31,920 bases of DNA from a virus (taxonomy: Duplodnaviria; Caudoviricetes), in IMG/VR virus record IMGVR_UViG_3300043220_000028, positions 1 through 31,920 of that record. One strand, 5' to 3'. The position numbers and the translations under genes are program-made. Positions 304-17,281 of the stretch are shown piece after piece. Within the stretch, counting starts at the first letter, position 1, and each line of letters opens with the position of its first letter. The notes below the pieces were generated by a model. The model was not told where the DNA came from and searched no databases. It worked only from the letters and a program-made list of their open reading frames with translations.

Positions 304-519
304 CTACCACGACAACCCATAGTGACGGGCACAATCAGGGCAGAAAAAGGGTCTGGCCCCACGCGGAGCTATACTAATCCACCTCTCAATAGAGAGCTTT
401 CGGAGCGGGTCGTCACAGAGGGTTCCACATCGGTCGCAGTCCTCTTTGATATCGTACCAGTCACCATCATAGGCAGCTAGATACTTCAGCAGAATCGTAT
501 CATCTCTATACATTACCAT
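304..519 (-). CDS. Small Zn-finger protein, GxxW-terminal family
   Basis: CDRC...CPDCARHYGLSW*. Confidence 0.8.
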   Translation of the reverse strand: MVMYRDDTILLKYLAAYDGDWYDIKEDCDRCGTLCDDPLRKLSIERWISIAPRGARPFFCPDCARHYGLSW

Positions 520-773
520 TCCAACCCTACCTTTTGGAGAAAGTCCTTCTTGTCCATCTCCACTCGCTTGCCATCTTGGAGGATGACGATGATGTCGGCT
601 TGAGAGACATCCATCTCATACCAAGTCTTGCCTTCTATATCATTGACGGATTTGCGAAACTCCGGTGCTGTTGTAGTCCATGCGACGCCGCTTGGGATGG
701 TGGTAATTGGGTGGCCTGGGATGGTGAACGTACCCCCATTGGTGGGGACTGTGGTGCTGTCGGTGTTTGTCAT
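513..773 (-). CDS. Hypothetical protein with family-like tail but no Zn ligands
   Basis: Ends KDFLQKVGLEW*; starts by TAATG overlap with the ClpP-like stop. Confidence 0.65.
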   Translation of the reverse strand: MTNTDSTTVPTNGGTFTIPGHPITTIPSGVAWTTTAPEFRKSVNDIEGKTWYEMDVSQADIIVILQDGKRVEMDKKDFLQKVGLEW

Positions 774-1360
774 TACTCTATTACCCCGTCGATGAGATTC
801 AACTCAAGGGCTTCTTCGGGCGTGAACACCTGGTTACGCCGAGCGATAAGTCCTTGCAGCTTCTTCTTAGTCATGCCAGTACGAGCTGTGATAATGTCGT
901 TGAGGGTGCCTTGAGTTCTCCGAATCTCTTTCTGGGTATCTTCCGTGCTAGAGAACGAGCCGACGTTTGCAGCCGAGAGTTCGTGCAGACCGAGCGAGCA
1001 GTGGGCTGTGGCGAATCGCTTGGTGGCGGCCTGGAGGATGATGGCCCCCATGCTCATGCACTGACCAGTGGCGACGATGTTGATGGGCGTCTTACGGGCT
1101 CCGGTTATGGACTTGAGTAGGTCATAGATAGCCAGCCCATCAGCCACTAGTCCGCCTGGAGTGTTGAGGATGATGTTGATGGGCTTATTCGAGTCCTCTG
1201 ACAAGAAAGAGAGGATGCGAGTCAGGTAGTACTGGACTTCGGAGTTGATGACTCCGGTGATGTAGACTTCACGGCGGTCAATGGCCGAGCGGTCTATCAT
1301 CTCGTGAATAGGCATCGAGGGGTTGGTCGGGCGTCTGCTACGACGTTTATATCTCGGCAT
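773..1360 (-). CDS. clpP: ClpP-like (peptidase S14) protein
   Basis: INIILNTPGG, GLAIYD, GQCMSMGA (Ser), GLHE (His), FTPEEALELNLID. Start moved to ATG 1360, behind an AGGAG RBS. Confidence 0.9.
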   Translation of the reverse strand: MPRYKRRSRRPTNPSMPIHEMIDRSAIDRREVYITGVINSEVQYYLTRILSFLSEDSNKPINIILNTPGGLVADGLAIYDLLKSITGARKTPINIVATGQCMSMGAIILQAATKRFATAHCSLGLHELSAANVGSFSSTEDTQKEIRRTQGTLNDIITARTGMTKKKLQGLIARRNQVFTPEEALELNLIDGVIE

Positions 1361-1670
1361 TCTTATCTCCTTTAGGTCTGTCATCCAGCTCTGGATGGGT
1401 CTCTTCAAATTCCATCAGTGTGAGCGCGCACCAGGCTACGCTGGCTAGGTGGTGCTGTCCATCTTCAGGGTCTAGCCTCTCGCCGCCCCACCAAGCCCAG
1501 CCATGACGCATCATGGCACCGAAGATGCGCCACCACGGGATACCTTCCTCCCAATTCCTGTCACTGTACTTCTTGGCCCCTAGCGTATAGACCTCAACCA
1601 GCTTGAATAGCGGCTTGACAGGCAGCAGGTCGAAGCGTGCCTTACCAGAGTCGTGTTTAATCCCAGCCAT
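1347..1670 (-). CDS. DUF5664 / dATP-dGTP diphosphohydrolase N-terminal domain protein
   Basis: KHDSGKARFDLLP, GAKKYSDRNWEEG, AMMRH, DPEDGQHHLASVAWCAL. Confidence 0.85.
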   Translation of the reverse strand: MAGIKHDSGKARFDLLPVKPLFKLVEVYTLGAKKYSDRNWEEGIPWWRIFGAMMRHGWAWWGGERLDPEDGQHHLASVAWCALTLMEFEETHPELDDRPKGDKNAEI

Positions 1671-1872
1671 TGACTAGACTCGCTATGGCGTATCCGCTAT
1701 CCCCTTTGGGCTGACGCTCACTTATGTAACTCTCCATCCTACAGAGCTCATCAACTGTCACGGTGCCCCACGGCATGTAATACTCGGTGCGTTGCATCGG
1801 CTGACGTAGCCAAGAGCCTAAAAACATATTTTTTATCTCATGATTATAACGCAACCATGTGACTCTACGCAT
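1657..1872 (-). CDS. Hypothetical protein
   Basis: ORF fills the gap and overlaps both neighbours. Confidence 0.6.
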   Translation of the reverse strand: MRRVTWLRYNHEIKNMFLGSWLRQPMQRTEYYMPWGTVTVDELCRMESYISERQPKGDSGYAIASLVNGWD

Positions 1873-2305
1873 AGTACCTCCCGATAAACTCTATTGCTTC
1901 CTCCACTGTCTCGCAGTAGTGCGACACACACTCGTTGATGAAGGGATGGTTCCTCATGAACGTGTCCTCTTTATGGCACACGGCAACGACAGGCATCTTC
2001 ATCTGCCATGCCCATCCTAGCTCCATGAGTGTGCCAGTGAGGGGGCGCGTGCTGCCCCACAGGTCAAAGTTGGCCAGCATCACATCGGCCTGAATGATGT
2101 CATTGTAGTCTCGTAGGATGATTGACTTGCTGTTTTGGTCGGGTGTACTGATGCCCCCATCCCTGCTCGTAGTCATGTCCTTACCGCGCAAGGGAGAGAG
2201 GCTGTCAATCCCCCAGCCCGCATCGAGCTTGAATGCGGCATCCTCACGCCACTCCAGTGACTGTGGATGGTCGGTGCTAATCAGACCTGCTAGATAGACA
2301 ATCAT
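1865..2305 (-). CDS. Nucleoside 2-deoxyribosyltransferase family protein
   Basis: VYLAG, RDYNDIIQADVMLA, GTLMELGWA..MKMPVV. Confidence 0.85.
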   Translation of the reverse strand: MIVYLAGLISTDHPQSLEWREDAAFKLDAGWGIDSLSPLRGKDMTTSRDGGISTPDQNSKSIILRDYNDIIQADVMLANFDLWGSTRPLTGTLMELGWAWQMKMPVVAVCHKEDTFMRNHPFINECVSHYCETVEEAIEFIGRYYA

Positions 2306-2535
2306 TATTCGCCTCCTTCCATCTGAGCGTCCAGCTTGTCGTCCAACTTACGCTGGTGTAGCTGGTCGCCTAATGTCAGCTTCATGTGGTCGTGCTTCTT
2401 CAGGTAGAGGATAGCCGAGTCGGCCATCAGGGAGTAGAAGTCCCGGCAACCTTGAACGCAGGAGTCCCATGCCTGAACAGGATGGTGCCTGTCATGCAGA
2501 TACCGGGCTAACTTGAGCGTGATAGACTCTACCAT
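2305..2535 (-). CDS. Hypothetical protein
   Basis: Starts in an ATGGTAG overlap and ends in a TAATG overlap. Confidence 0.7.
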   Translation of the reverse strand: MVESITLKLARYLHDRHHPVQAWDSCVQGCRDFYSLMADSAILYLKKHDHMKLTLGDQLHQRKLDDKLDAQMEGGE

Positions 2536-2738
2536 ATTACCCCCAACTCCCGCCCATGATACTCACAGACGATCCAAGAATCCAGGTAGTGAGTATCAAG
2601 CATTTTTCTTGTTAGTCTTGAACAAATATCACATTCACCTTTATCCCATTCCATGGTGTCTGCGACTGTAACCCCGACGGACGTTTCCGCTATCCGCTCC
2701 TGAATTCTCTTGTAAGTGGACGGAGCTAAATCTACCAT
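2529..2738 (-). CDS. Small Zn-finger protein, GxxW-terminal family
   Basis: CDIC...CEYHGRELGVIW*. Confidence 0.85.
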   Translation of the reverse strand: MVDLAPSTYKRIQERIAETSVGVTVADTMEWDKGECDICSRLTRKMLDTHYLDSWIVCEYHGRELGVIW

Positions 2739-3052
2739 AGCCAGCCGTCCTTGCGTGCGTGGTCAATGCATAGCCGCACGTGCTCGACCTTTCGGGCATC
2801 CCACAACGCGTGGTGCAGCGTGTTGTAGAGACAGTTCATCGGATACAGCAAGTCACTCACATGGCCCGTAGTGACCTTCATAATCTCAAGGAGGAGCTTT
2901 TTATTTTTTGCGTAATCGCCAGTCTGTTCATCGGAGATAATACGTTCGCCGGTCATCTGATTGTTCACCAGCAGGATACGGCCCTGTTCCTGGCACCGCT
3001 TGTCGCCTAGGGCTTCCCACTCCTTGATGCGGTCATGCCACGCTACTGCCAT
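2732..3052 (-). CDS. Small protein, GxxW-terminal family
   Basis: Ends LCIDHARKDGWLW*; TAAGGAG RBS upstream. Confidence 0.8.
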   Translation of the reverse strand: MAVAWHDRIKEWEALGDKRCQEQGRILLVNNQMTGERIISDEQTGDYAKNKKLLLEIMKVTTGHVSDLLYPMNCLYNTLHHALWDARKVEHVRLCIDHARKDGWLW

Positions 3053-3062
3053 GTCTGTCTCC

Positions 3063-3269
3063 TTACCATAACAGTCCTAACTCCCTAGCATGTTCCAAGC
3101 ACAACCAGGATTCCCGGAGCCCACAAAAACTGCTGTTCCAATCACAAGCGTCACACATAGGGCCTTCACTTACAAGGAATAAAGGTTTCACCTTATAGTC
3201 AATCGGCAATTTCGATGTGCCAATGTGGTGCCTTGTCACGGTTTCTTTCGTCGAAGATTGCAAGGTCAT
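3063..3269 (-). CDS. Small Zn-finger protein, GxxW-terminal family (true start uncertain, probably nearer 3200)
   Basis: CDAC...LCLEHARELGLLW*. Confidence 0.8.
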   Translation of the reverse strand: MTLQSSTKETVTRHHIGTSKLPIDYKVKPLFLVSEGPMCDACDWNSSFCGLRESWLCLEHARELGLLW

Positions 3270-3522
3270 ACTCCTTTGCCAGATGCGCTAGTATCACATG
3301 GAACGTCAACTGGCCTAGCTCGGACTTGTCCCACGAGCGGATGTCGATGGCCATGTTACGGTAGTGTCGGCTGGTGCGGCTGTGTCTACCGTCGTTGGCG
3401 CTCGTGACGACGAGAGGCTTGCCGAACAGCAGGTCATGGAACGACCCGGCCTTCTCCAACGCTAGTGCCAACTGAGGGTATAGCTTGTCAAGGTTCACAC
3501 GGTCGCTCTTCTTACGCCACAT
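3199..3522 (-). CDS. M15-type (Hedgehog/DD-peptidase fold) Zn peptidase, possible endolysin
   Basis: VVTSANDGRH, SRHYRNMAID (H-x6-D), HWH. Confidence 0.8.
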   Translation of the reverse strand: MWRKKSDRVNLDKLYPQLALALEKAGSFHDLLFGKPLVVTSANDGRHSRTSRHYRNMAIDIRSWDKSELGQLTFHVILAHLAKEYDLAIFDERNRDKAPHWHIEIAD

Positions 3523-3685
3523 GACTTATTCTCCTCTTCCTCGCTAGAGTCAGACGCCTTTCTACAGCGAGTATAGCAGCCAGAAGTGAGGCTTCCACTT
3601 CATAATACTTTTTCTGGGCTGCTTGGGCTCGGAGATACTCTAACTGACGTGCCATAAGTCCTAAGCCTATAACTAGCTTCCTCAT
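3512..3685 (-). CDS. Hypothetical helical protein
   Basis: MRKLVIG... start at a TAATG overlap with the upstream stop. Confidence 0.55.
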   Translation of the reverse strand: MRKLVIGLGLMARQLEYLRAQAAQKKYYEVEASLLAAILAVERRLTLARKRRISHVA

Positions 3686-3909
3686 TAGCCTTTCCTCTCG
3701 ATGGTGGCCTTCATAGCCACGTCGCCTACTTCCTTCAAGCACTTGCCGGAGCACACTAGGTAAGTCTCCGGCCCCTGCTCCGTGTCAGTGACGATGTTAT
3801 ACCAGCCCACCATCTGCTCTTTGACCTCCTGCTCCTGACCCGTCAGCTCTACCTGCTTCTTGGTCGTGCAGATGTCACACACCAGCTCTAACCACCTCTT
3901 CAACGCCAT
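3685..3909 (-). CDS. Small Zn-finger protein (CxxC...CSxxC, TRASH-like)
   Basis: VCDIC...VCSGKCL; TAAGGAG RBS before ATG 3909. Confidence 0.7.
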   Translation of the reverse strand: MALKRWLELVCDICTTKKQVELTGQEQEVKEQMVGWYNIVTDTEQGPETYLVCSGKCLKEVGDVAMKATIERKG

Positions 3910-3919
3910 GTTAATCTCC

Positions 3920-4102
3920 TTACCAGTCATATATCTTGTACGCCTTGCTGCACTTTGGACAAGTAACTACGATTCCACCATGCGTTCCGCAGGATTCACA
4001 ATCACTGGATGAAGCTGACATACCGTAGAGCAGGTTCACTTCCCCCCAGCCACATTTAGGGCACTTCATCCTCAGTCGAACTTCCTTTGGTTTCTTCGCC
4101 AT
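3920..4102 (-). CDS. Zn-ribbon protein
   Basis: Three CxxC motifs (CPKC, CESC, CPKC). Confidence 0.7.
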   Translation of the reverse strand: MAKKPKEVRLRMKCPKCGWGEVNLLYGMSASSSDCESCGTHGGIVVTCPKCSKAYKIYDW

Positions 4103-4117
4103 AAGTCACCCCGATGG

Positions 4118-4720
4118 TTACTTGCTACCATACTCGTCGATGCGCGGGATGAACTTGCGTAGCTTGCCGACCAACTGTTCGAGTTTGACTACGTCTACGA
4201 TGCAGTGCTCCACCACTTCGTCCATCGCCCTGCGCTGTTCTTTGCCCGTGGCCAGCAGGGCACGCAGCCACATGTGCCCCTCCACACTGGACTTGGAACC
4301 CAAGCCGAAGTGTTGGAGGATGCGAGCGAGGCTGTTCCATGAGAAGCGCAGGTGCTTGCGCGCTATCGTCACGGGGTCAATCATCTTGCAGCGCGGGTTG
4401 ACTATCACCCCACCAGTACCACCCGACAGCCCACTGAAGGCGCGGGTGTTGAGGAAGGGCCGGTCGAACCGCAGCCCGTTATGGGCTATAAGCACATCAT
4501 GCTTGTTCAGCTCGACGATGATGTCCTTCACCAGCCCAGAGTCATCATACTTATTGCCCTTCTTCCATGCCGCGTAGTTGTCGCCCCTGAAGATGATGGG
4601 CTTCTTGCCTACCTGCTTCACCACCGCGCAGAGTACCCGACCGAAGTCGGCACTGAGGTTTGAGGTCTCAATGTCAAATGTGGCGATAGAAATTACTTCT
4701 TCTTGCTGTCGCTTTGCCAT
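4118..4720 (-). CDS. RNase H-like (DEDD/YprB-type) 3'-5' exonuclease
   Basis: TFDIETS, AHNGLRFDRPFL, EHCIVDV. Confidence 0.88.
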   Translation of the reverse strand: MAKRQQEEVISIATFDIETSNLSADFGRVLCAVVKQVGKKPIIFRGDNYAAWKKGNKYDDSGLVKDIIVELNKHDVLIAHNGLRFDRPFLNTRAFSGLSGGTGGVIVNPRCKMIDPVTIARKHLRFSWNSLARILQHFGLGSKSSVEGHMWLRALLATGKEQRRAMDEVVEHCIVDVVKLEQLVGKLRKFIPRIDEYGSK

Positions 4721-4729
4721 GTTATCTCC

Positions 4730-4903
4730 TTACCATAAGTGGCCTAACTCTCTTGCGTGCTTCTCGCACAACCAGATATTCGCATTCTTTCTAAAGTTCC
4801 CATACCAGTTGCAGATGTCACAATAACTCTCATCCTCTGCGGCGGTGTAAGGTTTCTCAAGATGGCCCGCCGGTAAATCTACAATGGCGATGGGGCTCAT
4901 CAT
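4730..4903 (-). CDS. Small Zn-finger protein, GxxW-terminal family (57 aa, below ORF-track cutoff)
   Basis: Manual translation MMSPIAIVDLPAGHLEKPYTAAEDESYCDICNWYGNFRKNANIWLCEKHARELGHLW*. Confidence 0.85.
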   Translation of the reverse strand: MMSPIAIVDLPAGHLEKPYTAAEDESYCDICNWYGNFRKNANIWLCEKHARELGHLW

Positions 4904-4905
4904 CT

Positions 4906-5058
4906 CTACCTTCCTAATGCTTTGTTTGCTTGCTGCTTAGTAAGTCCCGTCCGCATGAGTGCCTTCTCCATGTAGTCTCTACCCATGCAGTCGGCCTCCA
5001 TCGTCTGGACTAGAATCTGTACGAGCACGGACTCCAGCAGTGTCAGTGGTTTAGCCAT
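4906..5058 (-). CDS. Hypothetical 50-aa protein
   Basis: Manual translation MAKPLTLLES...QQANKALGR*; AGGAG RBS; fills the gap. Confidence 0.6.
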   Translation of the reverse strand: MAKPLTLLESVLVQILVQTMEADCMGRDYMEKALMRTGLTKQQANKALGR

Positions 5059-5320
5059 CTTCGTCTCCTTCCAACTGGTCTAGTATCTTGTCAAGGTTCT
5101 GATGAGAGCGGAGGATGCGGAGGGCCGACTTGGCTCGCCTCGCAGTCAGTTGGGCTGCCACTTTGGGACTTACGCCAGACCAACGACTGATGTTCTGGAA
5201 GTCCCGCGACGCTATCCATGTGCTCCGGTCAGGTTCATGGAGATGCGCGAGACTATCCAACAGCACTACCAGCCACAGTCTCTGTTCATTACCTGCCACT
5301 CCGCGTCCTCTCTCTCTCAA
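5051..5320 (-). CDS. Hypothetical protein
   Basis: ORF track; start uncertain. Confidence 0.6.
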   Translation of the reverse strand: MRERGRGVAGNEQRLWLVVLLDSLAHLHEPDRSTWIASRDFQNISRWSGVSPKVAAQLTARRAKSALRILRSHQNLDKILDQLEGDEDG

Positions 5321-5534
5321 ACTCTGACTAGCATTTTACTCCTTTATCCTGTCCGGCCAGGGGGCATTGCTTCCGTCTCAGTGGCCACTGAGGGAGTTAC
5401 CCTGCTAGTCATAACTATAATAGCGAGCCCCTGCCTGCTCTCAGGTCATTGACAGGGGCCAGTTGGGTTGGTTCCGGGTAAACCATAACCTCCCAACTAC
5501 CCTCACACCTATACTGCCTCAATCAAGAGTGTAG

Positions 5535-5963
5535 TTAGGTGCGAGGGGTGAAGAAGTAACTGACTTCGAGTCGTGACGCATCGTCCTTCTGGAGCTTCGT
5601 ACCGAAACCGACCATGCGGCCAGTCAAGGCGTTGAAGTCCATGTCGCCTTCGGTGATGCCAGCGCCAGTGAACAGACCGCGCATCAACTTACGGACGTTG
5701 ATGTTATAGCTTATCTGTTCGTTGGTGGTGGTGGCGGTGAAACCGGGCTGGAGCCACTCAGGCTTGATGTTGATACGTGCGTAGAAGGTGCGGTCAGACT
5801 GGTCAGTATCCTTCAACCGATAGGCTAGAGGGATAGTTACCTGTGTGTAGCCGTTCCTGACTTCGCGGGATTCGACCTCGCCTATCCTGCCGAGCGCCTT
5901 AAATGCGAAGGCTTCCGGCTTGGGCACATCCTCGACTCTGATATTGCTGACTAGCGTGTTCAT
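5535..5963 (-). CDS. Putative OB-fold ssDNA-binding protein (DUF669-like)
   Basis: Beta-rich, DFNALTGRMV motif; own promoter and GAGGAG RBS; AAA_24 and PD-(D/E)XK genes nearby. Confidence 0.5.
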   Translation of the reverse strand: MNTLVSNIRVEDVPKPEAFAFKALGRIGEVESREVRNGYTQVTIPLAYRLKDTDQSDRTFYARINIKPEWLQPGFTATTTNEQISYNINVRKLMRGLFTGAGITEGDMDFNALTGRMVGFGTKLQKDDASRLEVSYFFTPRT

Positions 5964-6003
5964 GTGTTGTTGTCTCCTCGTTTTGTATTCGACTTACGAG
6001 GGC

Positions 6004-6032
6004 ATTTTACCACACGCCGTGCTGAAAGTCAA
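6004..6032 (-). promoter_or_regulatory. Sigma70-type promoter with extended -10
   Basis: TTGACT-17 nt-TAAAAT, with TGn before the -10. Confidence 0.8.
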
Positions 6033-6042
6033 GTTCTTTCGC

Positions 6043-6252
6043 TCACCACAAAACCCCCGCCTCCCTAGCATGAGCCTCGCAGAGATAGGGTTGCTGTTTA
6101 TCTCGTGTCCACCCTTTGATTAGTCTGCCTAATTGCTTAGGTTTTGTCGCATTATCGCCACAAATATCACACAGGAAACCTGTTTCGGCAAGGAAGCTAC
6201 CATTGAAGCTCATAAGGTAGCCTTTTATTAAAATCATCTGTCGCTTGGTCAT
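6043..6252 (-). CDS. Small Zn-finger protein, GxxW-terminal family
   Basis: MTKRQM...CDIC...LCEAHAREAGVLW*; ATGA overlap start. Confidence 0.85.
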   Translation of the reverse strand: MTKRQMILIKGYLMSFNGSFLAETGFLCDICGDNATKPKQLGRLIKGWTRDKQQPYLCEAHAREAGVLW

Positions 6253-6509
6253 GGTAGTCTCTCGATGCGCTTGATGCAGACGCGAGGGATGAACATACAC
6301 CCTCCGTACTGCTGACCGTCAGTGGACTTGCTGCTATAGAGAAGGACGCCTGCCTTGACTCGCTTGTAGACTAGGGCTTCGGTGATGACTAAGGAGTTGA
6401 GGCCAAGGGCCTCCAACTCTTCAGGAGCATGCCAGTCTGCTCGGTTCTGTGCGTCTATCCATGTGACACGGACGCGCATGGTTGGTTCTAGCTCTTTGTA
6501 CTTTACCAT
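6249..6509 (-). CDS. Conserved phage hypothetical protein
   Basis: VRVTWIDA...W...IPRVCIKRI pattern common in phage proteins; starts in an ATGGTAA overlap. Confidence 0.7.
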   Translation of the reverse strand: MVKYKELEPTMRVRVTWIDAQNRADWHAPEELEALGLNSLVITEALVYKRVKAGVLLYSSKSTDGQQYGGCMFIPRVCIKRIERLP

Positions 6510-6709
6510 AGCAACCCCTCCCGGTGACAGCACTCTCGACACCAAGCCTCGCCAGGCGCGCCCATGCCCTTGCCTAGAATCCACCAACGCGGCTCCTCGA
6601 ATTGCGTGTCACATTGGTCGCAGGCTTTGTTCCTCAATTCCAGGCGACCCTTTATTCGTAGACCTCTAGGCGTATCTGGACTACCTTGTTCTTGATGCGA
6701 AATTGGCAT
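6503..6709 (-). CDS. Small Zn-finger protein, GxxW-terminal family (start uncertain)
   Basis: CDQC...WCRECCHREGLLW*. Confidence 0.8.
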   Translation of the reverse strand: MPISHQEQGSPDTPRGLRIKGRLELRNKACDQCDTQFEEPRWWILGKGMGAPGEAWCRECCHREGLLW

Positions 6710-7059
6710 TTGTATTTACTCACTCCGTTAATGCCCATCCAATACTTTGGGCGCTCTTCTCTCCAAGTTAGCATGAAGGAGATGCGGATAGGACTAAAGA
6801 TGTTTGAGGGGGGAATCATAATCTTGAGAACAGGATGGGGGTCGGCCATGAGGTTCCAGTCTAGTATCTGACAGGCATACTCATGCACGCCATCGTCGCG
6901 CCAGATGCCGATGTTCTTTAGTACTGTATCGAAGGGCACCCACTTCCTGTGGCTCTTCCCTGTGTCTTGCATGTGGCTCTCTTTCGGCTCGTCCTGCGCC
7001 GCCACACCCATAGCTAGGACTAGACAACTAATCAACGTCAAGTATTTCAAGCGATACAT
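6652..7059 (-). CDS. Putative exported protein
   Basis: Signal-peptide-like N-terminus MYRLKYLTLISCLVLAMGVAA|Q. Confidence 0.65.
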   Translation of the reverse strand: MYRLKYLTLISCLVLAMGVAAQDEPKESHMQDTGKSHRKWVPFDTVLKNIGIWRDDGVHEYACQILDWNLMADPHPVLKIMIPPSNIFSPIRISFMLTWREERPKYWMGINGVSKYKCQFRIKNKVVQIRLEVYE

Positions 7060-7441
7060 AGGTCACTCCTTGTTCTTTGAAGCCTAACTCCTCAGCCACT
7101 CTCTCACTCACATCCACTATGCGCCGCTGCTTACATGAGTAGTAGTACGAGCCGACGTACTCACAGTATGGCCCTCGGTCTGTTACGCGGACGGTAACAC
7201 GTCGTTGAGTATCACGGCGAGTAAGGCGAAGAAGACTATTAAAGGGAAGAGTAGGATGGGCCACGGTGAAGTCACGGCCAGTGAAAATGTCACCCCCAGC
7301 AGTAAGCCTTCCAACATACCACGTACCATACCACGATGCCAAGCCATGTTCAATCTCCTTCCACTTAGGTTCTTCGATAGGCGGTAGTGTGCCGCCTGTG
7401 TGAGGCAGCAACATGAGTAGCAGTACCAAGCGCCTTACCAT
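7028..7441 (-). CDS. rlpA: RlpA-family DPBB lytic transglycosylase-like protein
   Basis: GLASWYG, TAGGDIF, AHPTLPF, VRVTDRGPY, RIVDVS; hydrophobic N-terminus from MVRRLVLLL. Confidence 0.88.
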   Translation of the reverse strand: MVRRLVLLLMLLPHTGGTLPPIEEPKWKEIEHGLASWYGTWYVGRLTAGGDIFTGRDFTVAHPTLPFNSLLRLTRRDTQRRVTVRVTDRGPYCEYVGSYYYSCKQRRIVDVSERVAEELGFKEQGVTYVSLEILDVD

Positions 7442-7683
7442 AGCAGCCCCATCTCTTGCACACAGTCTCGACAAGCTCTTACACAATTAGTGCGGCTCCA
7501 CGGCTCTCCCCCAAAGCTCATGCGCATTGAGCTAAGGTTTATAGCCGGGTCTTGCGTAATCCAATAGCACCACTGTCCGGGCCTATCACAGAACCCACAG
7601 TAGGTTGGGGTCGAACGAAAAGCACGTAATAACTTAACGTATGGCTTGCTGGAACTTGGCCCAGAGCTGGTCACTTTTACCAT
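7435..7683 (-). CDS. Small Zn-finger protein, GxxW-terminal family
   Basis: CGFC...ACRDCVQEMGLLW*. Confidence 0.82.
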   Translation of the reverse strand: MVKVTSSGPSSSKPYVKLLRAFRSTPTYCGFCDRPGQWCYWITQDPAINLSSMRMSFGGEPWSRTNCVRACRDCVQEMGLLW

Positions 7684-7820
7684 AGCACGCCCGCCTGACG
7701 TAGACAGTCGTCGCACATTAGACTATACTGACCTGACCCCATACTCACAAATGAGACGAGTTCATTCTTAGTCGAGCAGAAGGAACAGCTAGTACGATTG
7801 TGGCGAAATTTGCGTAACAC
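7677..7820 (-). CDS. Small Zn-finger protein, GxxW-terminal family, ClpX-ZBD-like (start uncertain; GTG 7820 assumed)
   Basis: CSFCSTKNELVSFVSMGSGQYSLMCDDCLRQAGVLW*. Confidence 0.8.
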   Translation of the reverse strand: MLRKFRHNRTSCSFCSTKNELVSFVSMGSGQYSLMCDDCLRQAGVLW

Positions 7821-7821
7821 C

Positions 7822-8559
7822 TCAACGAATGGCGGCTTGGTACTTGGCCCACAACCGCTTGAGGTCGGAGGTCTCTTCGTCTGAGAAGGCATTGGTCTTG
7901 TCCTTTGGCAGTCTGTTGCCTGCGAAGATACGACGTGATGTGTCACGGCGGGTGCGGAGCTTGAAGTTAGGTGAGCCAAGACAGTAGAAGATGAACGAGA
8001 ACTTGCTTGTTATGAGAGACATAGTGGAGGGGGGGAGGTCGGGCTTAATCCACGGCAACTTGAAGTCATCTTCGAGTGAGCGTTCGAGGGCAGTCACTAT
8101 CAGGTGGTAGTCGCCTTCGAGCAGAGCTTCGAGTGAGTTCCTCGCGTGGTCTTTGATAGCCTTGTAGACTTGACGGCCATCCTTTATCTCCTCACGGAAG
8201 CGAGTCTCATAGAAGTTGATTAGCTCTGTGTAGTCATCTATGATGAGGGTGTTCCACTGGCCGGAGAAGAACCGCCGGGGAGCATCGAGCACGTGGTCTA
8301 CTTCTCTTGCTGTCCGAACCCTCACGTAGTCTATGCCTAGCCTCTTGAGGTGGGCCAGTTGCTCTTCAGGTTGGGTGCTAACTACTCGGATTAGTTCTGG
8401 CTCGACTATGCTGGTGGCACAGGTGGTCTTGCCGCTCTTAGTCTCTCCGAACAAGAGAATGTGCGCGTGAGCCTGGTCTAGCTCACGGGTGTTCTTGATA
8501 GCCAGTGCGAGGGGCGTGCCCACCGCACCGCTAGCCTGTGGTATGATTAGCTTGTCCAT
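7822..8559 (-). CDS. AAA_24 / Sak4-like P-loop ATPase
   Basis: Walker A GETKSGKT, Walker B LIIDD; start MDKL behind AGGAG. Confidence 0.82.
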   Translation of the reverse strand: MDKLIIPQASGAVGTPLALAIKNTRELDQAHAHILLFGETKSGKTTCATSIVEPELIRVVSTQPEEQLAHLKRLGIDYVRVRTAREVDHVLDAPRRFFSGQWNTLIIDDYTELINFYETRFREEIKDGRQVYKAIKDHARNSLEALLEGDYHLIVTALERSLEDDFKLPWIKPDLPPSTMSLITSKFSFIFYCLGSPNFKLRTRRDTSRRIFAGNRLPKDKTNAFSDEETSDLKRLWAKYQAAIR

Positions 8560-8584: not shown

Positions 8585-8613
8585 ATTGTACCACAGTTGG
8601 GAGTGAAAGTCAA
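8585..8613 (-). promoter_or_regulatory. Sigma70-type promoter with extended -10
   Basis: TTGACT-17 nt-TACAAT, with TGn. Confidence 0.8.
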
Positions 8614-8614
8614 G

Positions 8615-8818
8615 TCACCATAAGAGCCCTAGCCTACCGTATACACATTCCTCACAAGCCCACGGATGCTCCTCGTTGATACATTTCTCTAATTCATATG
8701 CCTCTTTTGCGAGCCGGAGGAGCCTACCACAGGAGGTGCAGCGATAGGTTGGGAAGTCATCCTTGATTGTTCTAAGATGGCGAGTGGAACGTATCTCTGG
8801 ATACCTAGACCTCACCAT
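8615..8818 (-). CDS. Small Zn-finger protein, GxxW-terminal family
   Basis: CTSC...ACEECVYGRLGLLW*; start in an ATGGTGA overlap. Confidence 0.82.
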   Translation of the reverse strand: MVRSRYPEIRSTRHLRTIKDDFPTYRCTSCGRLLRLAKEAYELEKCINEEHPWACEECVYGRLGLLW

Positions 8819-9081
8819 ATCAGCCCATGCTTGCGAGCGCAGTCCATGCACATCCATTTGCTACCAAATACTCCCGTACTTAGTGGGTGGACAAACTCTA
8901 TATACTGGAAGGGATAAGGGACTCTAGTATTACAGCACCCCGCATGCCACGGACTCTGTTCATCATCCCATCTAGGGTCGGTGCGTAGTAGCTCGTAGGA
9001 TGGCCAGGTGTTCTTCACGTTGCTTGAAGCCGGAGGTATCTTGCTCCGGTCTGCTGATGCCACAGATTTTGCCATACTCAC
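8812..9081 (-). CDS. Small Zn-finger protein, GxxW-terminal family (start unclear)
   Basis: HAGCC...WMCMDCARKHGLIW*. Confidence 0.75.
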   Translation of the reverse strand: MSMAKSVASADRSKIPPASSNVKNTWPSYELLRTDPRWDDEQSPWHAGCCNTRVPYPFQYIEFVHPLSTGVFGSKWMCMDCARKHGLIW

Positions 9082-9784
9082 ACTTCTCCTTGTTCATGCA
9101 GGGCCATGAGTTCTCAGAGTGGGGCCACGGCTGGTCTATGCCGAAGGTGCGGCGCATAAACTCTATCATCTCGCAGGTTTGGTGGACAGCCAGCCGCATC
9201 AACTCCAGTTGGTACTCAGTACGCTTGACTACCAGCTCCCATATCACAGGCGGTGAGGACTCCACGACAGTACGCACAAGCAAGCCCAACGGTTTGTAAC
9301 CTAGAGCCTGCGCGCCTATCAGCTCGAACTCAGCCTGCTTACGCGTCTGCCATTGAGCGCTTATCTTGGCAAAGGTGTTGCGAGGGTTGGTAGTCTTGAC
9401 CTCGCCTACCCATTGGCGTCCGTCTATCTCTAGTATCTGGTCTATCTTACCACAGATAGAGTGCGGCGAGTTGGGCAGTTGTTGAAGGAACTCCGGCTCA
9501 CTCACTAGGATGGTGGGGCCGCTTGGGTTGTAGCGCTGGAGCCAGTGGGCGAACATGCGCTTGGCTGCGGCTATGGCCTTGAGGTCTTGCACCTCTCTCG
9601 CCACCAGCAGGTCTATCTCACCTGCCTTCCTGCCTTTGGTGTGGTACTCTAGCATGAGATGGAAGGCTATGCCACGCTGGAGGTAGTAGTTAGGCACGGC
9701 AGGGGAGAGGTTCAACTCGTAGTGGATGCGGTACTTCTCCATGTTGCGGTGGAAACTATCGAAGCGAGAAAAGTCCAGATTCAT
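8972..9784 (-). CDS. PD-(D/E)XK (Cas4/RecB-like) exonuclease
   Basis: RGIAFH, GKIDQI, GEVKT, C-terminal C-x5-C-x5-C. Confidence 0.85.
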   Translation of the reverse strand: MNLDFSRFDSFHRNMEKYRIHYELNLSPAVPNYYLQRGIAFHLMLEYHTKGRKAGEIDLLVAREVQDLKAIAAAKRMFAHWLQRYNPSGPTILVSEPEFLQQLPNSPHSICGKIDQILEIDGRQWVGEVKTTNPRNTFAKISAQWQTRKQAEFELIGAQALGYKPLGLLVRTVVESSPPVIWELVVKRTEYQLELMRLAVHQTCEMIEFMRRTFGIDQPWPHSENSWPCMNKEKCEYGKICGISRPEQDTSGFKQREEHLAILRATTHRP

Positions 9785-9791
9785 AGTGCCT

Positions 9792-9820
9792 AGTATAGCA
9801 CACTATGAGTAGAATGTCAA
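9792..9820 (-). promoter_or_regulatory. Sigma70-type promoter, probably giving a leaderless mRNA
   Basis: TTGACA-17 nt-TATACT with TGn; ATG begins 8 nt after the -10; no RBS. Confidence 0.82.
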
Positions 9821-9821
9821 G

Positions 9822-10049
9822 CTACCATATCAAGTTCCTCTCTCTAGCACATGACTCACAAAACCACCCCGCCGGTCTATTATCCAACTCTGCATACCGC
9901 ACACTAATGAGTAAGAAATGGGGGTTTGTTTGTTCGACTTTACACCAGAAACAACTGGCAGGATAGCTCGTCCTATGGGTGTAACTGAGCCAAGCGCGGT
10001 CTACAGTACGAATGGACACGACTACCCACGGGCCATCTTTACGATACAT
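9822..10049 (-). CDS. Small Zn-finger protein, GxxW-terminal family
   Basis: CFWC...WFCESCARERNLIW*. Confidence 0.82.
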   Translation of the reverse strand: MYRKDGPWVVVSIRTVDRAWLSYTHRTSYPASCFWCKVEQTNPHFLLISVRYAELDNRPAGWFCESCARERNLIW

Positions 10050-11226
10050 GCACCACCCCGATTAGGTTGTGGACTTTAGGTGGTGACTCTACATCCTCGA
10101 CGGTCAGGACTACTAGGGTAGGCACGGCATAGCGGGAGAGCCACTCGACGTAGCCGTCGGTGACTATGATGTTGAACATACAAGCATCTTGCTTGGCCTG
10201 TCTATCTACTTCGTGGATGTCTGTGCCGCCGCTGCCCTCACGAGTTATCTTCTTGATTTGGCTGGCGGTAGTCAAGCGTAGGCGTTTGATGATGGCACAG
10301 GTGAAGTGATAGACATAGAGTTCCTTGAAGCCTAGTTGTTGAGTGGCGGAGTGGACGGTGCCTAGTATTTGGGAGAACATCTCGTCGCACACGGAGCCGC
10401 TGTTGTCGAGCGACAGCGCAAACCGACGAGCTATGGTGTCGCTGGCTAGGTTGGGGAGCACCATGTTGCGCCCGTCGCACATGGCACGGCGATAGATAGA
10501 ACGGACATCGAAGTGCTTGCAGTTGGTGTCGAGGGCGGTCAAATAGCGGGCTAGTTGACGCCGCCAATCAGGCGGTTTAGTCAAGCCCATCCTATCTAGG
10601 AGTAGCTGACGGAGTTCGCCTACTTGGTCGCCGGGCGGTTGGCCACCTACGCCCTCTTGAAGAGTCTTAGTAGCAGCCTCTCTCGCCTGTTCAGCTATCA
10701 TTTGGGCTACGCCGGATTGCGGCTCACCTTCACCGTCTTTGCCATCACCACCGCACAGGCACAGCACGGGCGGAAGCTTATTGGCTGGGTCTTTCTTCAA
10801 CTCCTTGTATATCTCTTCGGTAGAGAGCATCTTCCATACTTCTTCGGGCTTGACACCACCAGACGGGGTGCTCCAACCGGACAAGCTCTCAACCAGGGCA
10901 TTGACGGCATGCTCAGCGGCGGTGGAATAGAGGTCATGCCGGTAGTCGTCGCCCTCTTGACGCTTCATGGCCTGGCCCCGGCGAAGGTGGTCGCACAGGA
11001 AGTGGGCAGCTTCGTGAGCTAGGATGAAGGTGTTGTCAGCATCCTTCTGAGCGGCGACGAACTTGGGATTGACCTTAATCTTGAGGGTATCGTTGTTGAT
11101 GCCAATGGTACCAATGGACTCATCCTCTTCGTAGGTTGCGGCGTAAAGAATCGCGTCGAAGGCAGGTATAGCACGGCACACACCCCTACGCCACTTCTTA
11201 ATCTGTTCCATCAAGTCAGCGTTCAT
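10039..11226 (-). CDS. DUF2201-type metallopeptidase + VWA domain protein
   Basis: HEAAH (HExxH), MIDAS DNSGS, GGTD, TDG. Confidence 0.85.
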   Translation of the reverse strand: MNADLMEQIKKWRRGVCRAIPAFDAILYAATYEEDESIGTIGINNDTLKIKVNPKFVAAQKDADNTFILAHEAAHFLCDHLRRGQAMKRQEGDDYRHDLYSTAAEHAVNALVESLSGWSTPSGGVKPEEVWKMLSTEEIYKELKKDPANKLPPVLCLCGGDGKDGEGEPQSGVAQMIAEQAREAATKTLQEGVGGQPPGDQVGELRQLLLDRMGLTKPPDWRRQLARYLTALDTNCKHFDVRSIYRRAMCDGRNMVLPNLASDTIARRFALSLDNSGSVCDEMFSQILGTVHSATQQLGFKELYVYHFTCAIIKRLRLTTASQIKKITREGSGGTDIHEVDRQAKQDACMFNIIVTDGYVEWLSRYAVPTLVVLTVEDVESPPKVHNLIGVVHVS

Positions 11227-11305
11227 ACTTCCTCCTTACTGCGAACCGCAGTAGAAACAAGCCAACGAAAAGCAAAGCCATCGGCAGTAGCCTCTCCAAT
11301 AGCAT
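11216..11305 (-). CDS. Small membrane peptide (29 aa)
   Basis: Manual translation MLLERLLPMALLFVGLFLLRFAVRRKYER*; fills the gap. Confidence 0.45.
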   Translation of the reverse strand: MLLERLLPMALLFVGLFLLRFAVRRKYER

Positions 11306-11306
11306 C

Positions 11307-12392
11307 CTATTCTCCTTTGTACTTCTCAAGAAACAGATGATGCAACTTCTTTATCTTCTCGTCCTTCAGCAGCTCAGTGGTTGGGATGCGGTAGGTGAGC
11401 AGGCGGCCAACGATGTAACTCTTCTCGTCGCCTATCTGCTTCTTGGCTAGGGTGAGGAACTTGTAGGCTTGGGGTATTTTGGTCACTTGGCCCGCGGCGG
11501 TGAGATAGACGGCGAGCAGGAGGTTGGGGTCGTCAGTTTCGACGGACTTGCCGTTGAGGAGCTGTTCGATTAGCTCGCTATAGTCGTTGCGGAACTGGTA
11601 GTAGCGTTGATACTTACGACCTGCGTTTTCGCCGACGAACATGGCTGCGTCAGGAGGGCCTGCCGCTTTGTGGTTGAGGGCGTGAGAGAAGTTTGTCCAT
11701 GCACGAGGGTCGGCCACCTTCAGCAAGTCGGCGTCCTTGAAGTCATCGTGCTGGTTCAGGATGTCCGGGGCCAACTGAATGGCGGTGATGATTGACTCGT
11801 GTACGCCGTGGTCGAGCGCCCAATGCAGCCAGGAGCTGACGGAGGTTTCGATGTGCATGATGATGGGCCGAGAGGCGAAGGCTTTGTCCATCTCGAAGGT
11901 GTACTGCGCGTGCCATGCGTTGCCCGCTCCGATGACGTAGGTATCCTTCAAGTCGAAGCCGTTGAGCTTCTTCTCACTCAAGACCTGGAGCATACCCGAC
12001 TGTGCAATAGGTTGGATGCGGTCTATCTCATCGAGAAACAGGATACGAGGCCCAGGCTTGCCCATCACCTCGTCCACTAGAGGAGGCACAGCAAAGTACA
12101 TAGTCCTAGTAGCAGGGTCAATGCCAACACCGCCTGTGTCAAGGGGGTGGACTTGACTCAAGTGCCTGACAATAAGGGAGTTAGCTCTGCCCTCTCGCCT
12201 TAAGTTCTCGAACAGAGCATACACTGCCTCTGTCTTGCCGATGCCCACCGCCCCAATGGCTATCATGGCAGGGCACTTGTCAGGCGGCAAGTTGGTAATC
12301 ATGCGCTCGACCACCGCCTGATAGCCGGACACTGTGGTTTGGTACAGGTTGTGCGTAGTCAGTGTCTCTTGCTGCTCTTTCTTCTTTGTCAT
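11307..12392 (-). CDS. MoxR-like AAA+ ATPase
   Basis: GAVGIGKT, LFLDEIDR, GAGN, AFASR, PRAW; adjacent to the VWA gene. Confidence 0.88.
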   Translation of the reverse strand: MTKKKEQQETLTTHNLYQTTVSGYQAVVERMITNLPPDKCPAMIAIGAVGIGKTEAVYALFENLRREGRANSLIVRHLSQVHPLDTGGVGIDPATRTMYFAVPPLVDEVMGKPGPRILFLDEIDRIQPIAQSGMLQVLSEKKLNGFDLKDTYVIGAGNAWHAQYTFEMDKAFASRPIIMHIETSVSSWLHWALDHGVHESIITAIQLAPDILNQHDDFKDADLLKVADPRAWTNFSHALNHKAAGPPDAAMFVGENAGRKYQRYYQFRNDYSELIEQLLNGKSVETDDPNLLLAVYLTAAGQVTKIPQAYKFLTLAKKQIGDEKSYIVGRLLTYRIPTTELLKDEKIKKLHHLFLEKYKGE

Positions 12393-12395
12393 TCG

Positions 12396-12659
12396 TCACC
12401 TCTCCTTTAGTACGCGTCCTCTACCTTCCATGCTAAGCCTGCCTTCTCGGCACATGCTGTGCATAAGAGATTCAGATTGCCAAACTTACCTCTCGGAGCA
12501 TCAGTAATTAGCAAGGAGTGTATGTCTCCCTTTATCTCCTGGCCGCAACCCACGCCCATCGAGACTGAGTCAGTGGTAAATGCTGCTCCACAGTGACCTA
12601 AAATCACACACCCCTTCCTGTGGACACGTAGTATCCTCATCATATCACCTCTCCTTTAG
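12396..12659. repeat. 15-bp direct repeat (CTAAAGGAGAGGTGA on the minus strand) flanking one family gene
   Basis: tcacctctcctttag at 12396-12410 and 12645-12659. Confidence 0.8.
12407..12643 (-). CDS. Small Zn-finger protein, GxxW family with a 6-aa extension
   Basis: LLCTACAEKAGLAW-KVEDAY*. Confidence 0.75.
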   Translation of the reverse strand: MMRILRVHRKGCVILGHCGAAFTTDSVSMGVGCGQEIKGDIHSLLITDAPRGKFGNLNLLCTACAEKAGLAWKVEDAY

Positions 12660-12661
12660 AG

Positions 12662-12871
12662 CTACCACATTAGACTCAATTCCTGAGCGTGTTCCTTGCA
12701 TAGATAAGGTCTAATCAACGTACCAGGAGCCCTCACTTGTCTAGTCTTTAACCAATGGATTAGACCATACGAAGGCAGGCGGCACACGTCGCACCTCACC
12801 TCCGTCAATAGCCAACCCCGATTGACACGTGCCATGTAGACAAGTAGCAGCTTCCTCTCTTTGGCTGTCAC
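12662..12871 (-). CDS. Small Zn-finger protein, GxxW-terminal family
   Basis: CDVC...YLCKEHAQELSLMW*. Confidence 0.82.
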   Translation of the reverse strand: MTAKERKLLLVYMARVNRGWLLTEVRCDVCRLPSYGLIHWLKTRQVRAPGTLIRPYLCKEHAQELSLMW

Positions 12872-12896
12872 CTCTTATCCTTTCAGTGGATTGCAC

Positions 12897-13133
12897 TTAC
12901 CATACTACACCTAGCTCTCTGCCGTGGTCGGGGCATAGGTTGGGAAATTCATAGGAGTATTCTCCTGTATCATCACGAATTAGAAATTCCAGCAGCCCAT
13001 AGTTGTCGGGCTTGTCATCCACACAACACACATCACACTTGCTCCCAAGTATGAACTTCCCATTGTGCTGCTTCAAGTAGGCGCGCATGTGCTTCATTTG
13101 TTGGGTGGTCATTGACGGGCACTCCTGAGTCAC
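12897..13133 (-). CDS. Small Zn-finger protein, GxxW-terminal family
   Basis: CDVC...LCPDHGRELGVVW*. Confidence 0.85.
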   Translation of the reverse strand: MTQECPSMTTQQMKHMRAYLKQHNGKFILGSKCDVCCVDDKPDNYGLLEFLIRDDTGEYSYEFPNLCPDHGRELGVVW

Positions 13134-13318
13134 TCACGTAGAGTGGAGAGGATGTGGATGCGGGTATCAGTGGTGGGCAGGGTGGGCTTGCTAGTCGTGT
13201 TAGTCTCAGCCTCGGTCATGTAACCACGCACTCGTTGGAGTTGGAGGGAGTGGGCTGAGCACCACTGAGAGCGGGGCACAGCAGGCGTAAAGCAGCCCTT
13301 CAAAGCACAGTCAGTCAT
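13130..13318 (-). CDS. Small Cys/His Zn-finger protein
   Basis: C-x4-C...WCSAH; TAAGGAG RBS. Confidence 0.65.
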   Translation of the reverse strand: MTDCALKGCFTPAVPRSQWCSAHSLQLQRVRGYMTEAETNTTSKPTLPTTDTRIHILSTLRE

Positions 13319-13328
13319 CGAAGTCTCC

Positions 13329-13502
13329 TTACCACAGTAGTCCTAGTTCTCTTGCACAATCTACGCACAGGTCAGGCGTGAACACCCTCAGGCCCCTCTC
13401 TCGCCACTCGCACCAATCACAAATGTCTTTAAGCTCAGTGAGGGTGAACTTCCAATCATATCGGGCGAGAAACTCCAACACCACACTGTCAGGCACACTC
13501 AT
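13329..13502 (-). CDS. Small Zn-finger protein, GxxW-terminal family (57 aa, below ORF-track cutoff)
   Basis: Manual translation MSVPDSVVLEFLARYDWKFTLTELKDICDWCEWRERGLRVFTPDLCVDCARELGLLW*; AGGAG RBS. Confidence 0.87.
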   Translation of the reverse strand: MSVPDSVVLEFLARYDWKFTLTELKDICDWCEWRERGLRVFTPDLCVDCARELGLLW

Positions 13503-13563
13503 CAGACTCTCCTGAGCTTAGCTATCAACCACACCAAGAGCAGCAGCTCAATGGGACACACGG

Positions 13564-13707
13564 TTAGTCTCCCACTAGCACAGTAATGACAGCCCCACAC
13601 CCACAACATAACTGATGCCACACCCCAAAGTAACCTTCGACCCAATAGTGGTGGGCATAAGGACACAGCTTATGAGTGGTTGGCTTGTGAGGGTAGAGAG
13701 TTAGCAT
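13564..13707 (-). CDS. Small Cys/His-rich protein (47 aa)
   Basis: Manual translation MLTLYPHKPTTHKLCPYAHHYWVEGYFGVWHQLCCGCGAVITVLVGD*; AAGGAG RBS. Confidence 0.6.
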   Translation of the reverse strand: MLTLYPHKPTTHKLCPYAHHYWVEGYFGVWHQLCCGCGAVITVLVGD

Positions 13708-13824
13708 CGGAGTTAACTCCTTTGGAATCAGTGACGGTAAAATAAACTTAGAAAGTAGGCAACCTTTTGGTGATAGAAAGCATCTTACCCACCAAGGGGT
13801 AAGAAGGCGAGAGCTGTGGGGTAC

Positions 13825-14016
13825 TCACCACAGCAAACCTAGCTCTCTTGCGTGGTCGGCACAAAGAAACCAGAGTCGAAAGCCAAACCGAAGTCTCCGC
13901 CATACCCAGGCCTCAGCCCCTGCGCGACAGACATCACAACCCATAGAGTCGGGAGGACGATACTCTTCTATCTGCTCTCGTAACCGTGTGCGAAGAGACT
14001 CCGATAGCTTTATCAT
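13825..14016 (-). CDS. Small Zn-finger protein, GxxW-terminal family
   Basis: CDVC...FLCADHARELGLLW*. Confidence 0.87.
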   Translation of the reverse strand: MIKLSESLRTRLREQIEEYRPPDSMGCDVCRAGAEAWVWRRLRFGFRLWFLCADHARELGLLW

Positions 14017-14064
14017 AGCTCCCTTATCTCTCGACGCCGCGCCCTTTGGGGGCGCTCTTACTGG

Positions 14065-14274
14065 CTACCATATCATACCCCGCTTACGTAGGCACTCCTC
14101 GCACCACCACCAGCTCATGCCCTCGTACCCAGGCATGTCCTTGACAAGATAGGCTCGGCCACCAACAGAATGGTCATGAGTATCAGGCCGAGCATCCATG
14201 CACCACCCTCGGACATGCTGCCAATGGCGTCGCTCAGGCCAGGGCCTACTCCTTAGTATCTCTACCATATCCAA
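14065..14274 (-). CDS. Small Zn-finger protein, GxxW-terminal family
   Basis: WWWCEECLRKRGMIW*. Confidence 0.82.
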   Translation of the reverse strand: MDMVEILRSRPWPERRHWQHVRGWCMDARPDTHDHSVGGRAYLVKDMPGYEGMSWWWCEECLRKRGMIW

Positions 14275-14501
14275 CCACGCTCTTTACAGCAGTTTTCGCA
14301 CCACCATCCATCTGCGAGGGGGCTGTCATCTCTCTCGGTAGTTGGCACCCCCTCTACGCGGTAGATGACTTCGCATTGAGGATGGCCGTCAGGGTTCTCC
14401 CAATCCTTAGCTCCAAAGCAGTAGTACCTGACATGCCCTTCTCGTCTATTACCCAGGAATTGCTCAGCTATCGTGCTCCGCCGCCCAACCACAATAGTCA
14501 T
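14262..14501 (-). CDS. Small Zn-finger protein, GxxW-terminal family
   Basis: WWCENCCKERGWIW*. Confidence 0.82.
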   Translation of the reverse strand: MTIVVGRRSTIAEQFLGNRREGHVRYYCFGAKDWENPDGHPQCEVIYRVEGVPTTERDDSPLADGWWCENCCKERGWIW

Positions 14502-17275: not shown

Positions 17276-17281
17276 TTTCCG

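Follow-up and report, generated by a model that had tools for sequence, protein, structure and literature searches.

The window analyzed here is the whole of a 31,920-nucleotide (nt) stretch of DNA (positions 1 to 31,920 of IMG/VR record IMGVR_UViG_3300043220_000028), which covers most of a tailed-phage genome as one minus-strand and one plus-strand gene arm. Between positions 304 and 14,501, the minus-strand arm carries 19 small genes of a predicted zinc-finger family, whose products share a short C-terminal tail closing on tryptophan. A prior reading of the letters without database searches (the sequence-only reading) had listed 18 stop positions for such genes. All 18 are present on the minus strand and all match C-x2-[CH]-x4/5-[GNS]-x2-W-stop. 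A six-frame scan of the window returned no match beyond these 18, and 200 order-4 Markov simulations of the 17-kb arm gave a mean of 0.02 matches and a maximum of 1. All three stop codons are indeed in use among the 18 tails (TAG 7, TAA 7, TGA 4), and open reading frame (ORF) 12407 carries the motif plus a 6-residue extension, which the orthologue in the relative G004 keeps. The upstream CxxC ascribed to most members is canonical in 14 of the 18, the exceptions being 2732, 8812, 14065, and 14262. The claim that two zinc-less ORFs have similar tails held for ORF 513, which ends G-L-E-W-stop, but not well for ORF 16189, where four residues follow the Trp and Met replaces it in one of 4 homologues; ORF 16189 is probably outside the family.

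The 19 window members, named by their stop positions, occupy 4,173 of the 14,197 bases of the region. Several ORFs, with the starts given here, are shorter than the longest ORF. Several members (7677-7892, 8812-9075, and 6503-6709) begin within an upstream core gene, their N-terminal codons lying over its 3' end in a different frame. The members are as follows.

304..519, minus: member; start overlaps the Trp-stop of ORF 513
2529..2738, minus: member; start inside the tail of 2732; absent from G001
2732..3052, minus: member with a long conserved N-terminal part, without the canonical first CxxC
3063..3269, minus: member; stop merges with the next ribosome-binding site
4730..4903, minus: member, 57 amino acids (aa), before the DnaQ-like exonuclease gene
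6043..6252, minus: member
6503..6709, minus: member
7435..7683, minus: member; start inside the tail of 7677
7677..7892, minus: member; sub-threshold zf-C4_ClpX match; N terminus overprints the end of Sak4
8615..8818, minus: member, 5-residue spacing variant; start inside the tail of 8812
8812..9075, minus: member with CC in place of CxxC; overlaps the exonuclease end
9822..10049, minus: member
12407..12643, minus: member with the 6-residue extension after Trp, conserved in G004
12662..12871, minus: member
12897..13112, minus: member
13329..13502, minus: member, 57 aa
13825..14016, minus: member; AlphaFold2 model shows knuckle, hairpin, and helix
14065..14268, minus: member; start inside the tail of 14262
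14262..14501, minus: member without the canonical first CxxC

Sequence comparison indicates that the members are real proteins under purifying selection. Across 33 orthologous cross-genome pairs, the ratio of nonsynonymous to synonymous substitution rates (dN/dS) is 0.14 in the last 13 codons and 0.29 in the body, with a tail dS of 0.63; these pairs were chosen at a body identity of at least 45% and are interdependent, which biases the body value downward. For comparison, seven core genes give 0.065 to 0.12. Synonymous codons in the tail are as varied as described from the sequence, with free third positions and base conservation that follows codon periodicity.

The tail as coding end and start codon

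The base before TGG is a purine in all 19 window tails considered here (the 18 and ORF 513; 14 A and 5 G), so that the tail spells an ATG or GTG overlapping the stop by 7 nt. Eight of these 19 tails open a downstream ORF of 67 to 137 codons, and across the clade, from which we collected 119 unique members in 9 records, the A/G-TGG-stop of 61 tails also starts the next ORF (at least 50 codons). Such 7-nt overlaps are almost confined to the tails of the family and of ORF 513 and are absent from the distant relative G009. A stop/start overlap of this kind leaves the upstream gene only Trp or Cys as its last residue. The tails show no excess of terminators (11, compared with 14.5 in shuffles). The sequence-only reading had placed the constraint on the protein; this stands insofar as Trp is kept where no gene start overlaps it, but about half of the tails also start the next gene, and they bound gain and loss of members. 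In uncoupled members (9822, 8615, 12897, and 4730) the overlapped ATG often opens a mini-ORF of 3 to 8 codons, which in two cases crosses the -35 box of a promoter.

The uncoupled tails bear on whether the Trp is also kept at the protein level. Trp-stop is retained in the 58 of 119 tails that are uncoupled, across 17 different preceding codons, all three stops, and promoter, ribosome-binding-site, or other contexts downstream, with C or T before TGG in 16 of them. A hidden Markov model (HMM) lacking the tail, trained on Trp-ending members, found 111 unique matches at E<0.01 (0 in reversed controls); all end in Trp, with no Cys-ending or Trp-less member among them. Similarly, homologues of ORF 513 end in GLEW in 21 of 21 cases, although the protein matches the family profile with a probability of 3%, that is, shows no profile similarity, and 24 of the 119 members lack the canonical first CxxC and keep the tail. 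The tail therefore outlasts the zinc-binding core. Together, the uncoupled Trp-stops and the like ending of a zinc-less family make protein-level selection likely, and from the sequences the Trp is probably selected in the protein.

Nearly all members close on three hydrophobic residues, and Gly, Asn, or Asp at position -4, at a fixed spacing from the last ligand, is found in 117 of 119. A hydrophobic-hydrophobic-Trp end might be a generic degradation tag or membrane anchor, making these early proteins short-lived or peripheral. Nonpolar C-terminal degrons are known in bacteria, and the portability of the tail to a zinc-less domain, like its hydrophobic end, would suit this idea; we consider it improbable, since such signals are usually degenerate, whereas here the Trp does not vary and stands at a set distance from the zinc site. 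A sliding-clamp-binding motif was rejected: Gln stands at -6 in 5 of 119 tails and Glu in 66, and we take a leading glutamine to be the mark of that motif.

In each of the four clade genomes spanning the locus, ORF 513 comes after ClpP. It is predicted to form a conserved domain of four strands and a helix after a low-confidence, Gly-rich, variable N terminus; its model gave no fold match, and the ESM Atlas returned nothing usable for it.

Distribution and turnover of the family

Copy numbers were counted in the three near-complete relatives, G001, G003, and G004, which carry 20, 25, and 26 motif matches and 19, 24, and 26 copies by profile search, respectively, or one copy per 1.7 to 2.3 kb of genome; a 13-kb fragment (L025) has 16 motif matches. 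Members are about 45 to 110 aa long and every one stops at the tail. A profile search of 1.84 billion proteins gave 132 matches, 38 short and 94 long. The long ones were rejected as members, as the 8 of 94 examined are eukaryotic C2H2 arrays matched across two fingers, and the C2H2 rows of the profile-versus-structure search are the same artifact. Short proteins end in Trp in 43 of 44 cases, and in 32 of 32 among those outside the genomes analyzed here, a result partly built in because the search profile contains the tail. Further, only 5 IMG/VR contigs, every one from this clade, contain a match to a DNA pattern for the tail.

Among 25 more distant phage records, most of them incomplete, three contain a single weak finger apiece, and the expansion is absent from all. 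Three of the distant relatives (G009, G011, and G019) share ClpP, SSB, and the exonuclease and have no match for the AAA+/vWA pair, Sak4, the DnaQ-like protein, RlpA, or ORF 513. The expansion is thus an invention of one clade, and confinement to one clade means that its co-occurrence with any gene counts as a single event. Two sequences are possible outgroups: P0084, an outlier finger protein with a Trp end and a different spacing, and the single finger of G011 (L093:16876-17058), which reads through Leu-Leu-Trp for 11 more residues. A host ancestor did not emerge from 301 genomes of the phylum of G028: 8 gave weak matches, and the 7 examined are generic fingers without the tail.

As the sequence-only reading had it, the variable part turns over fast: 130 members (duplicates between the window and the near relative G002 included) sort into 69 subfamilies, of which 37 have a single member. 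The order of core genes is fixed, while the members between them differ and replace one another at fixed slots; from genome to genome, a given downstream promoter or gene start can be preceded by unrelated members. G001 lacks member 2529, and the G000/G001 indel there lies between 9-bp repeats at the junction; G003 has a duplicated junction of ~22 bp before its polymerase gene; and contigs of sequencing run X1 skip whole members, for example, 2527-2731 and 12410-12897. From these gains and losses at the tail junction, in the few cases examined, we infer exchange by short-homology recombination.

A precedent is provided by the PeSL cassettes of the T4-type phages RB49 and phi1, in which, in the portion of the article consulted, accessory genes are described as gained, lost, and replaced by recombination at repeats (Arbiol et al. 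2010, PMC2839356). In both systems a short repeated element between genes bounds gene gain and loss. The PeSL element is a noncoding promoter/stem-loop, whereas in the present family it is the cargo gene's own coding end that repeats, with about 7 to 22 bp shared. Rad52-like annealases are likewise described as recombining short homologies in the part of PMC3945230 consulted, which does not mention Sak4. A diversity-generating retroelement acting in cis was rejected, as we found no reverse transcriptase motif in long ORFs, no near-identical second copy (G000 to G004), and no reverse transcriptase Pfam match; one acting in trans is possible.

The bounding of gains and losses by the junction, together with the near confinement of 7-nt overlaps to family tails, would also be expected if members were nearly neutral cassettes that insert harmlessly, preserve translational coupling, and have little function of their own. 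This we find very hard to credit, given a dN/dS well below 1 in body and tail, the retention of zinc ligands, and the space that the 19 members fill.

The phage genome and its host

The minus-strand arm encodes ClpP, a dATP/dGTP diphosphohydrolase, a DnaQ-like exonuclease, an RlpA-like protein, Sak4, a PD-(D/E)XK exonuclease, a DUF2201 metallopeptidase-vWA protein, and an AAA+ ATPase; the plus-strand arm encodes terminase, an SU10-type portal, and capsid. Features of the window other than members are listed below.

513..773, minus: zinc-less protein with tail register GLEW-stop, directly after ClpP
773..1360, minus: ClpP-family gene, start approximate; weakly supported candidate partner
2305..2535, minus: 76-aa ORF; ATG inside the tail of member 2529
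6004..6032, minus: predicted sigma70-like promoter, just behind member 6043
6249..6509, minus: conserved 86-aa ORF; ATG inside the tail of member 6503
7028..7441, minus: RlpA-like (DPBB_1) gene; ATG inside the tail of member 7435
7822..8559, minus: Sak4-like annealase, start approximate; candidate for member exchange
8585..8613, minus: predicted sigma70-like promoter, directly behind the stop of member 8615
8972..9784, minus: PD-(D/E)XK exonuclease
9792..9820, minus: predicted sigma70-like promoter, directly behind the stop of member 9822
10039..11226, minus: DUF2201 metallopeptidase-vWA; occurs with the expansion, not in three distant relatives
11307..12392, minus: AAA+ ATPase, MoxR-like by context; accompanies the expansion, absent from three distant relatives; candidate partner
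16189..16353, minus: zinc-less ORF with a helix-Gly-Trp end, Trp neither terminal nor invariant; probably not family

Relatives at 91 to 100% terminase identity are 45 to 47 kb long, with terminal repeats in two. The one run holding the region is labeled marine sediment. A capsid relative at 56% identity occurs in an Acidobacteriaceae metagenome-assembled genome, and among cultured phages Tunturiibacter phage Tunturi_3 matches best (34%); the host is possibly a member of the Acidobacteriota.

Window bases 1 to 8507 are identical to G002 and bases 16716 to 31920 to G001, each of which is only about 73 to 94% alike to the window on the other arm, and exact-match contigs have a depth of about 60 to 69 on the left arm and 41 to 48 on the right. 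The window may therefore be a two-strain assembly, likely a strain chimera or a recombinant joined near the inverted repeat at 16523-16721. The family result is unaffected, because both strains carry the family.

The noncoding stretch between the arms contains this 41-bp inverted repeat (16523-16721) and a 28-bp AT-rich direct repeat with dyad symmetry (18102-18181), a possible origin or operator. The ends of G003 are duplicated at ~80 to 93%. Genes for the dATP/dGTP diphosphohydrolase (1347-2305, minus) and a nucleoside deoxyribosyltransferase (recorded with window 1347-2305 and L007:1727-3937), and the family A polymerase encoded by G001, which has an N-terminal UDG-like domain, make modified-base DNA a possibility. 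The metallopeptidase-vWA and AAA+ pair (10039-12392, minus) is present in a 46-kb phage; this arrangement is described for jumbo phages in the part of PMC7824862 consulted. Other small Cys-rich genes lacking the tail motif lie at 3920-4102, 3685-3930, 14930-15085, and 15082-15336; ORF 3920 is zinc-ribbon-like, also ends in Trp-stop, and is found only in G000 and G002.

Predicted fold and proposed function

A treble clef, as set out in the part of PMC4999995 consulted, is a two-ligand zinc knuckle along with a loop and a beta-hairpin, plus a helix start that supplies two more ligands. Its ligand pattern is found in 95 of the 119 members, and the AlphaFold2 model of member 13825 has strands at 41-44 and 47-50 and a helix at 53-58 (pLDDT 69.6); the family fold is thus predicted to be a treble-clef zinc finger. 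The ESM Atlas placed member 12897 only in unnamed clusters, at 0.90. A homodimer prediction for member 13329 with zinc (score 0.02, mark 0.42) is evidence neither way.

An HMM-library search found no Pfam match above cutoff for the window members. For the 95 aligned members, Pfam, NCBIfam, and PHROGs yielded only scattered weak matches, and PADLOC yielded none; when member 13329 was compared by tblastn with 50,697 phage records from GenBank, nothing matched at E 10. Two candidate families were rejected: the ClpX C4 zinc finger (PF06689), which member 7677 matches at 17.7 bits against a cutoff of 27 and which 1 of 95 members matches at all, and DUF7455 (PF24254), with a best score of 17.4 bits against a cutoff of 27 and weak matches in 3 of 95. 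Literature searches likewise found no description of this zinc-finger family. These library and literature results agree with the sequence-only reading, to which no described phage family of this kind was known.

The members share a layout (CxxC...CxxC/H, hairpin, then helix) with ClpG N1 (PDB 8P66), ClpE, McsA, and the ClpX zinc-binding domain (PF06689), with weak matches to 8p66 (Foldseek E 2.6, 34% identity over 35 columns; profile E 0.15) and to ClpX 2ds7 (profile E 0.29). In the text consulted, the first strand of ClpG N1 is reported to bind clients for the AAA+ ring, and ClpE and McsA to have homologous domains (10.1101/2023.08.31.555675); the client-binding region of such domains is the region that varies among members. 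In contrast to these single-copy domains of larger proteins, the members are free-standing, exist in 20 or more divergent copies, and bear the Trp tail; assignment to the ClpG N1/ClpE/McsA N-terminal domain was rejected, as members are not part of an AAA+ ATPase or adaptor polypeptide. The likeness to CsfB, a Bacillus anti-sigma factor, and to the gyrase inhibitor YacG lies in a small, free-standing treble clef, which in those proteins inhibits a partner (parts of PMC5890618 and PMC4999995); they are, however, host encoded, single copy, and conserved, with neither a shared tail nor a gene library. The structural match to CsfB (Z 2.0) is not significant.

Many paralogous small zinc-binding genes in one phage are also seen in Bacillus phage G, a jumbo phage with a lineage-specific expansion of about 35 zinc ribbons, for which a transcription-factor role is proposed in the part consulted (Iyer et al. 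2021, PMC7824862). The family described here is set apart from phage G, as described there, by its predicted treble clef and dual-coded tail. Expanded families of small zinc-binding phage proteins are known; this one is uncatalogued, unusually dense, and dual-coded in its tail. With the phage G proposal as precedent, and with members lying directly before promoters and core-gene starts, the fingers could be nucleic-acid-binding regulators that read a promoter or mRNA while the tail recruits RNA polymerase or the ribosome. We hold this to be unlikely: charge is not uniformly basic (median isoelectric point 6.8, below 6 in 35 of 102 and above 8.5 in 25 of 102), and unrelated members share one slot, so that position does not track sequence.

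Because the nearest domains of the same layout bind proteins and the mixed charge argues against a general nucleic-acid role, we favor, at a probability of about 0.42, a library of interchangeable binders of host proteins that have a docking tail in common. Target choice would fall to the variable knuckle-hairpin surface, and the constant helix-Gly-hydrophobic-hydrophobic-Trp-COOH end would attach to a single partner common to the members. By analogy with ClpG N1, McsA, and CsfB, targets would be bound through the hairpin region, and the role may be host takeover or anti-defense. Members may be exchanged by short-homology recombination at the tail junction, possibly through the phage's Sak4-like annealase and exonuclease, and exchange there would let a member drop in before a gene while leaving its translation start intact.

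Several observations weigh against this docking library. Uncoupled tails have an excess of purines before TGG (42 of 58, with 28.3 expected; p about 1e-4); the tail is therefore shaped by history at the DNA level. Each of the four genomes in which ORF 513 was seen couples it to a member, and the junction could account for its Trp. The 6-residue extension is tolerated in member 12407 and in its orthologue. Members were picked by a Trp-ending pattern or by a profile trained on such members, which is partly circular. The pattern Ala-x-x-x-Gly/Asn-Leu-Ile is a generic helix cap that also occurs in the ClpP of this phage, and structural matches of the family model are all sub-significant (best Foldseek E 1.5, best VIA Z 3.0, with LIM, GATA, ArfGAP, ClpG N1, and CsfB among the rows). 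Member 304 differs from its G001 allele by 14 nonsynonymous and 0 synonymous changes plus one codon (P=0.024), and both alleles occur in run X1 over 374-492; this pair is only a hint of diversification, being the extreme of 33, unable to survive correction, and set against a pooled body dN/dS below 1.

Some of these points would equally fit independent inhibitors, each with its own target in the manner of CsfB and YacG, in which the tail caps or packs the fold without a shared partner and the stop stands right behind it owing to the overlap architecture. The -4 residue and fixed spacing suit a helix cap, as do its counterpart in ClpP and the extension of 12407; 61 of 119 tails double as start codons; and CsfB sets a precedent for a free-standing treble-clef inhibitor (PMC5890618, in the part consulted). 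We judge this explanation somewhat unlikely, although it is the nearest competitor. Beyond the Cys/His ligands and the tail, the body offers no conserved residue for the Trp to pack against (mean column identity 14%), the zinc-less ORF 513 family has the same end, and extensions are rare even in the 58 uncoupled tails.

For a docking library, the shared partner might be an AAA+ unfoldase or protease system, either host Clp or the phage MoxR-like ATPase, an identification that we regard as doubtful. The MoxR-like protein was not found in the same 301 genomes at E 1e-20. ClpP is a weak candidate, because G009, G011, and G019 have ClpP without the family, a further point against the docking reading. 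The ClpP gene (773-1360, minus) lies in the replication arm rather than the head module and encodes a basic N-terminal extension. Near the C terminus, G011 and G019 retain an Asp, presumably the catalytic one, at a position where ClpP of the clade has Asn or Glu.

On the boldest form of the docking library, which is tentative and more improbable than probable, the genes would be integrase-free cassettes whose last codons serve as recombination junction, next start, and docking tag; with them a 46-kb phage could rotate dozens of adaptors, each a zinc finger with its own target, through one machine of host or phage, for example, an AAA+ protease. Function aside, the dual-coded junction offers a simple route for accessory-gene exchange inside tightly coupled operons. 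It also carries a caution relevant to other phage protein families with a shared tail, namely, that a conserved terminal Trp can partly stem from a 7-nt stop/start overlap. If the tail does dock on one partner, a small phage would possess eukaryote-style interchangeable substrate receptors, and the family would constitute a natural panel of more than 100 binders for defense or regulatory proteins of the host, from a poorly studied bacterial group.

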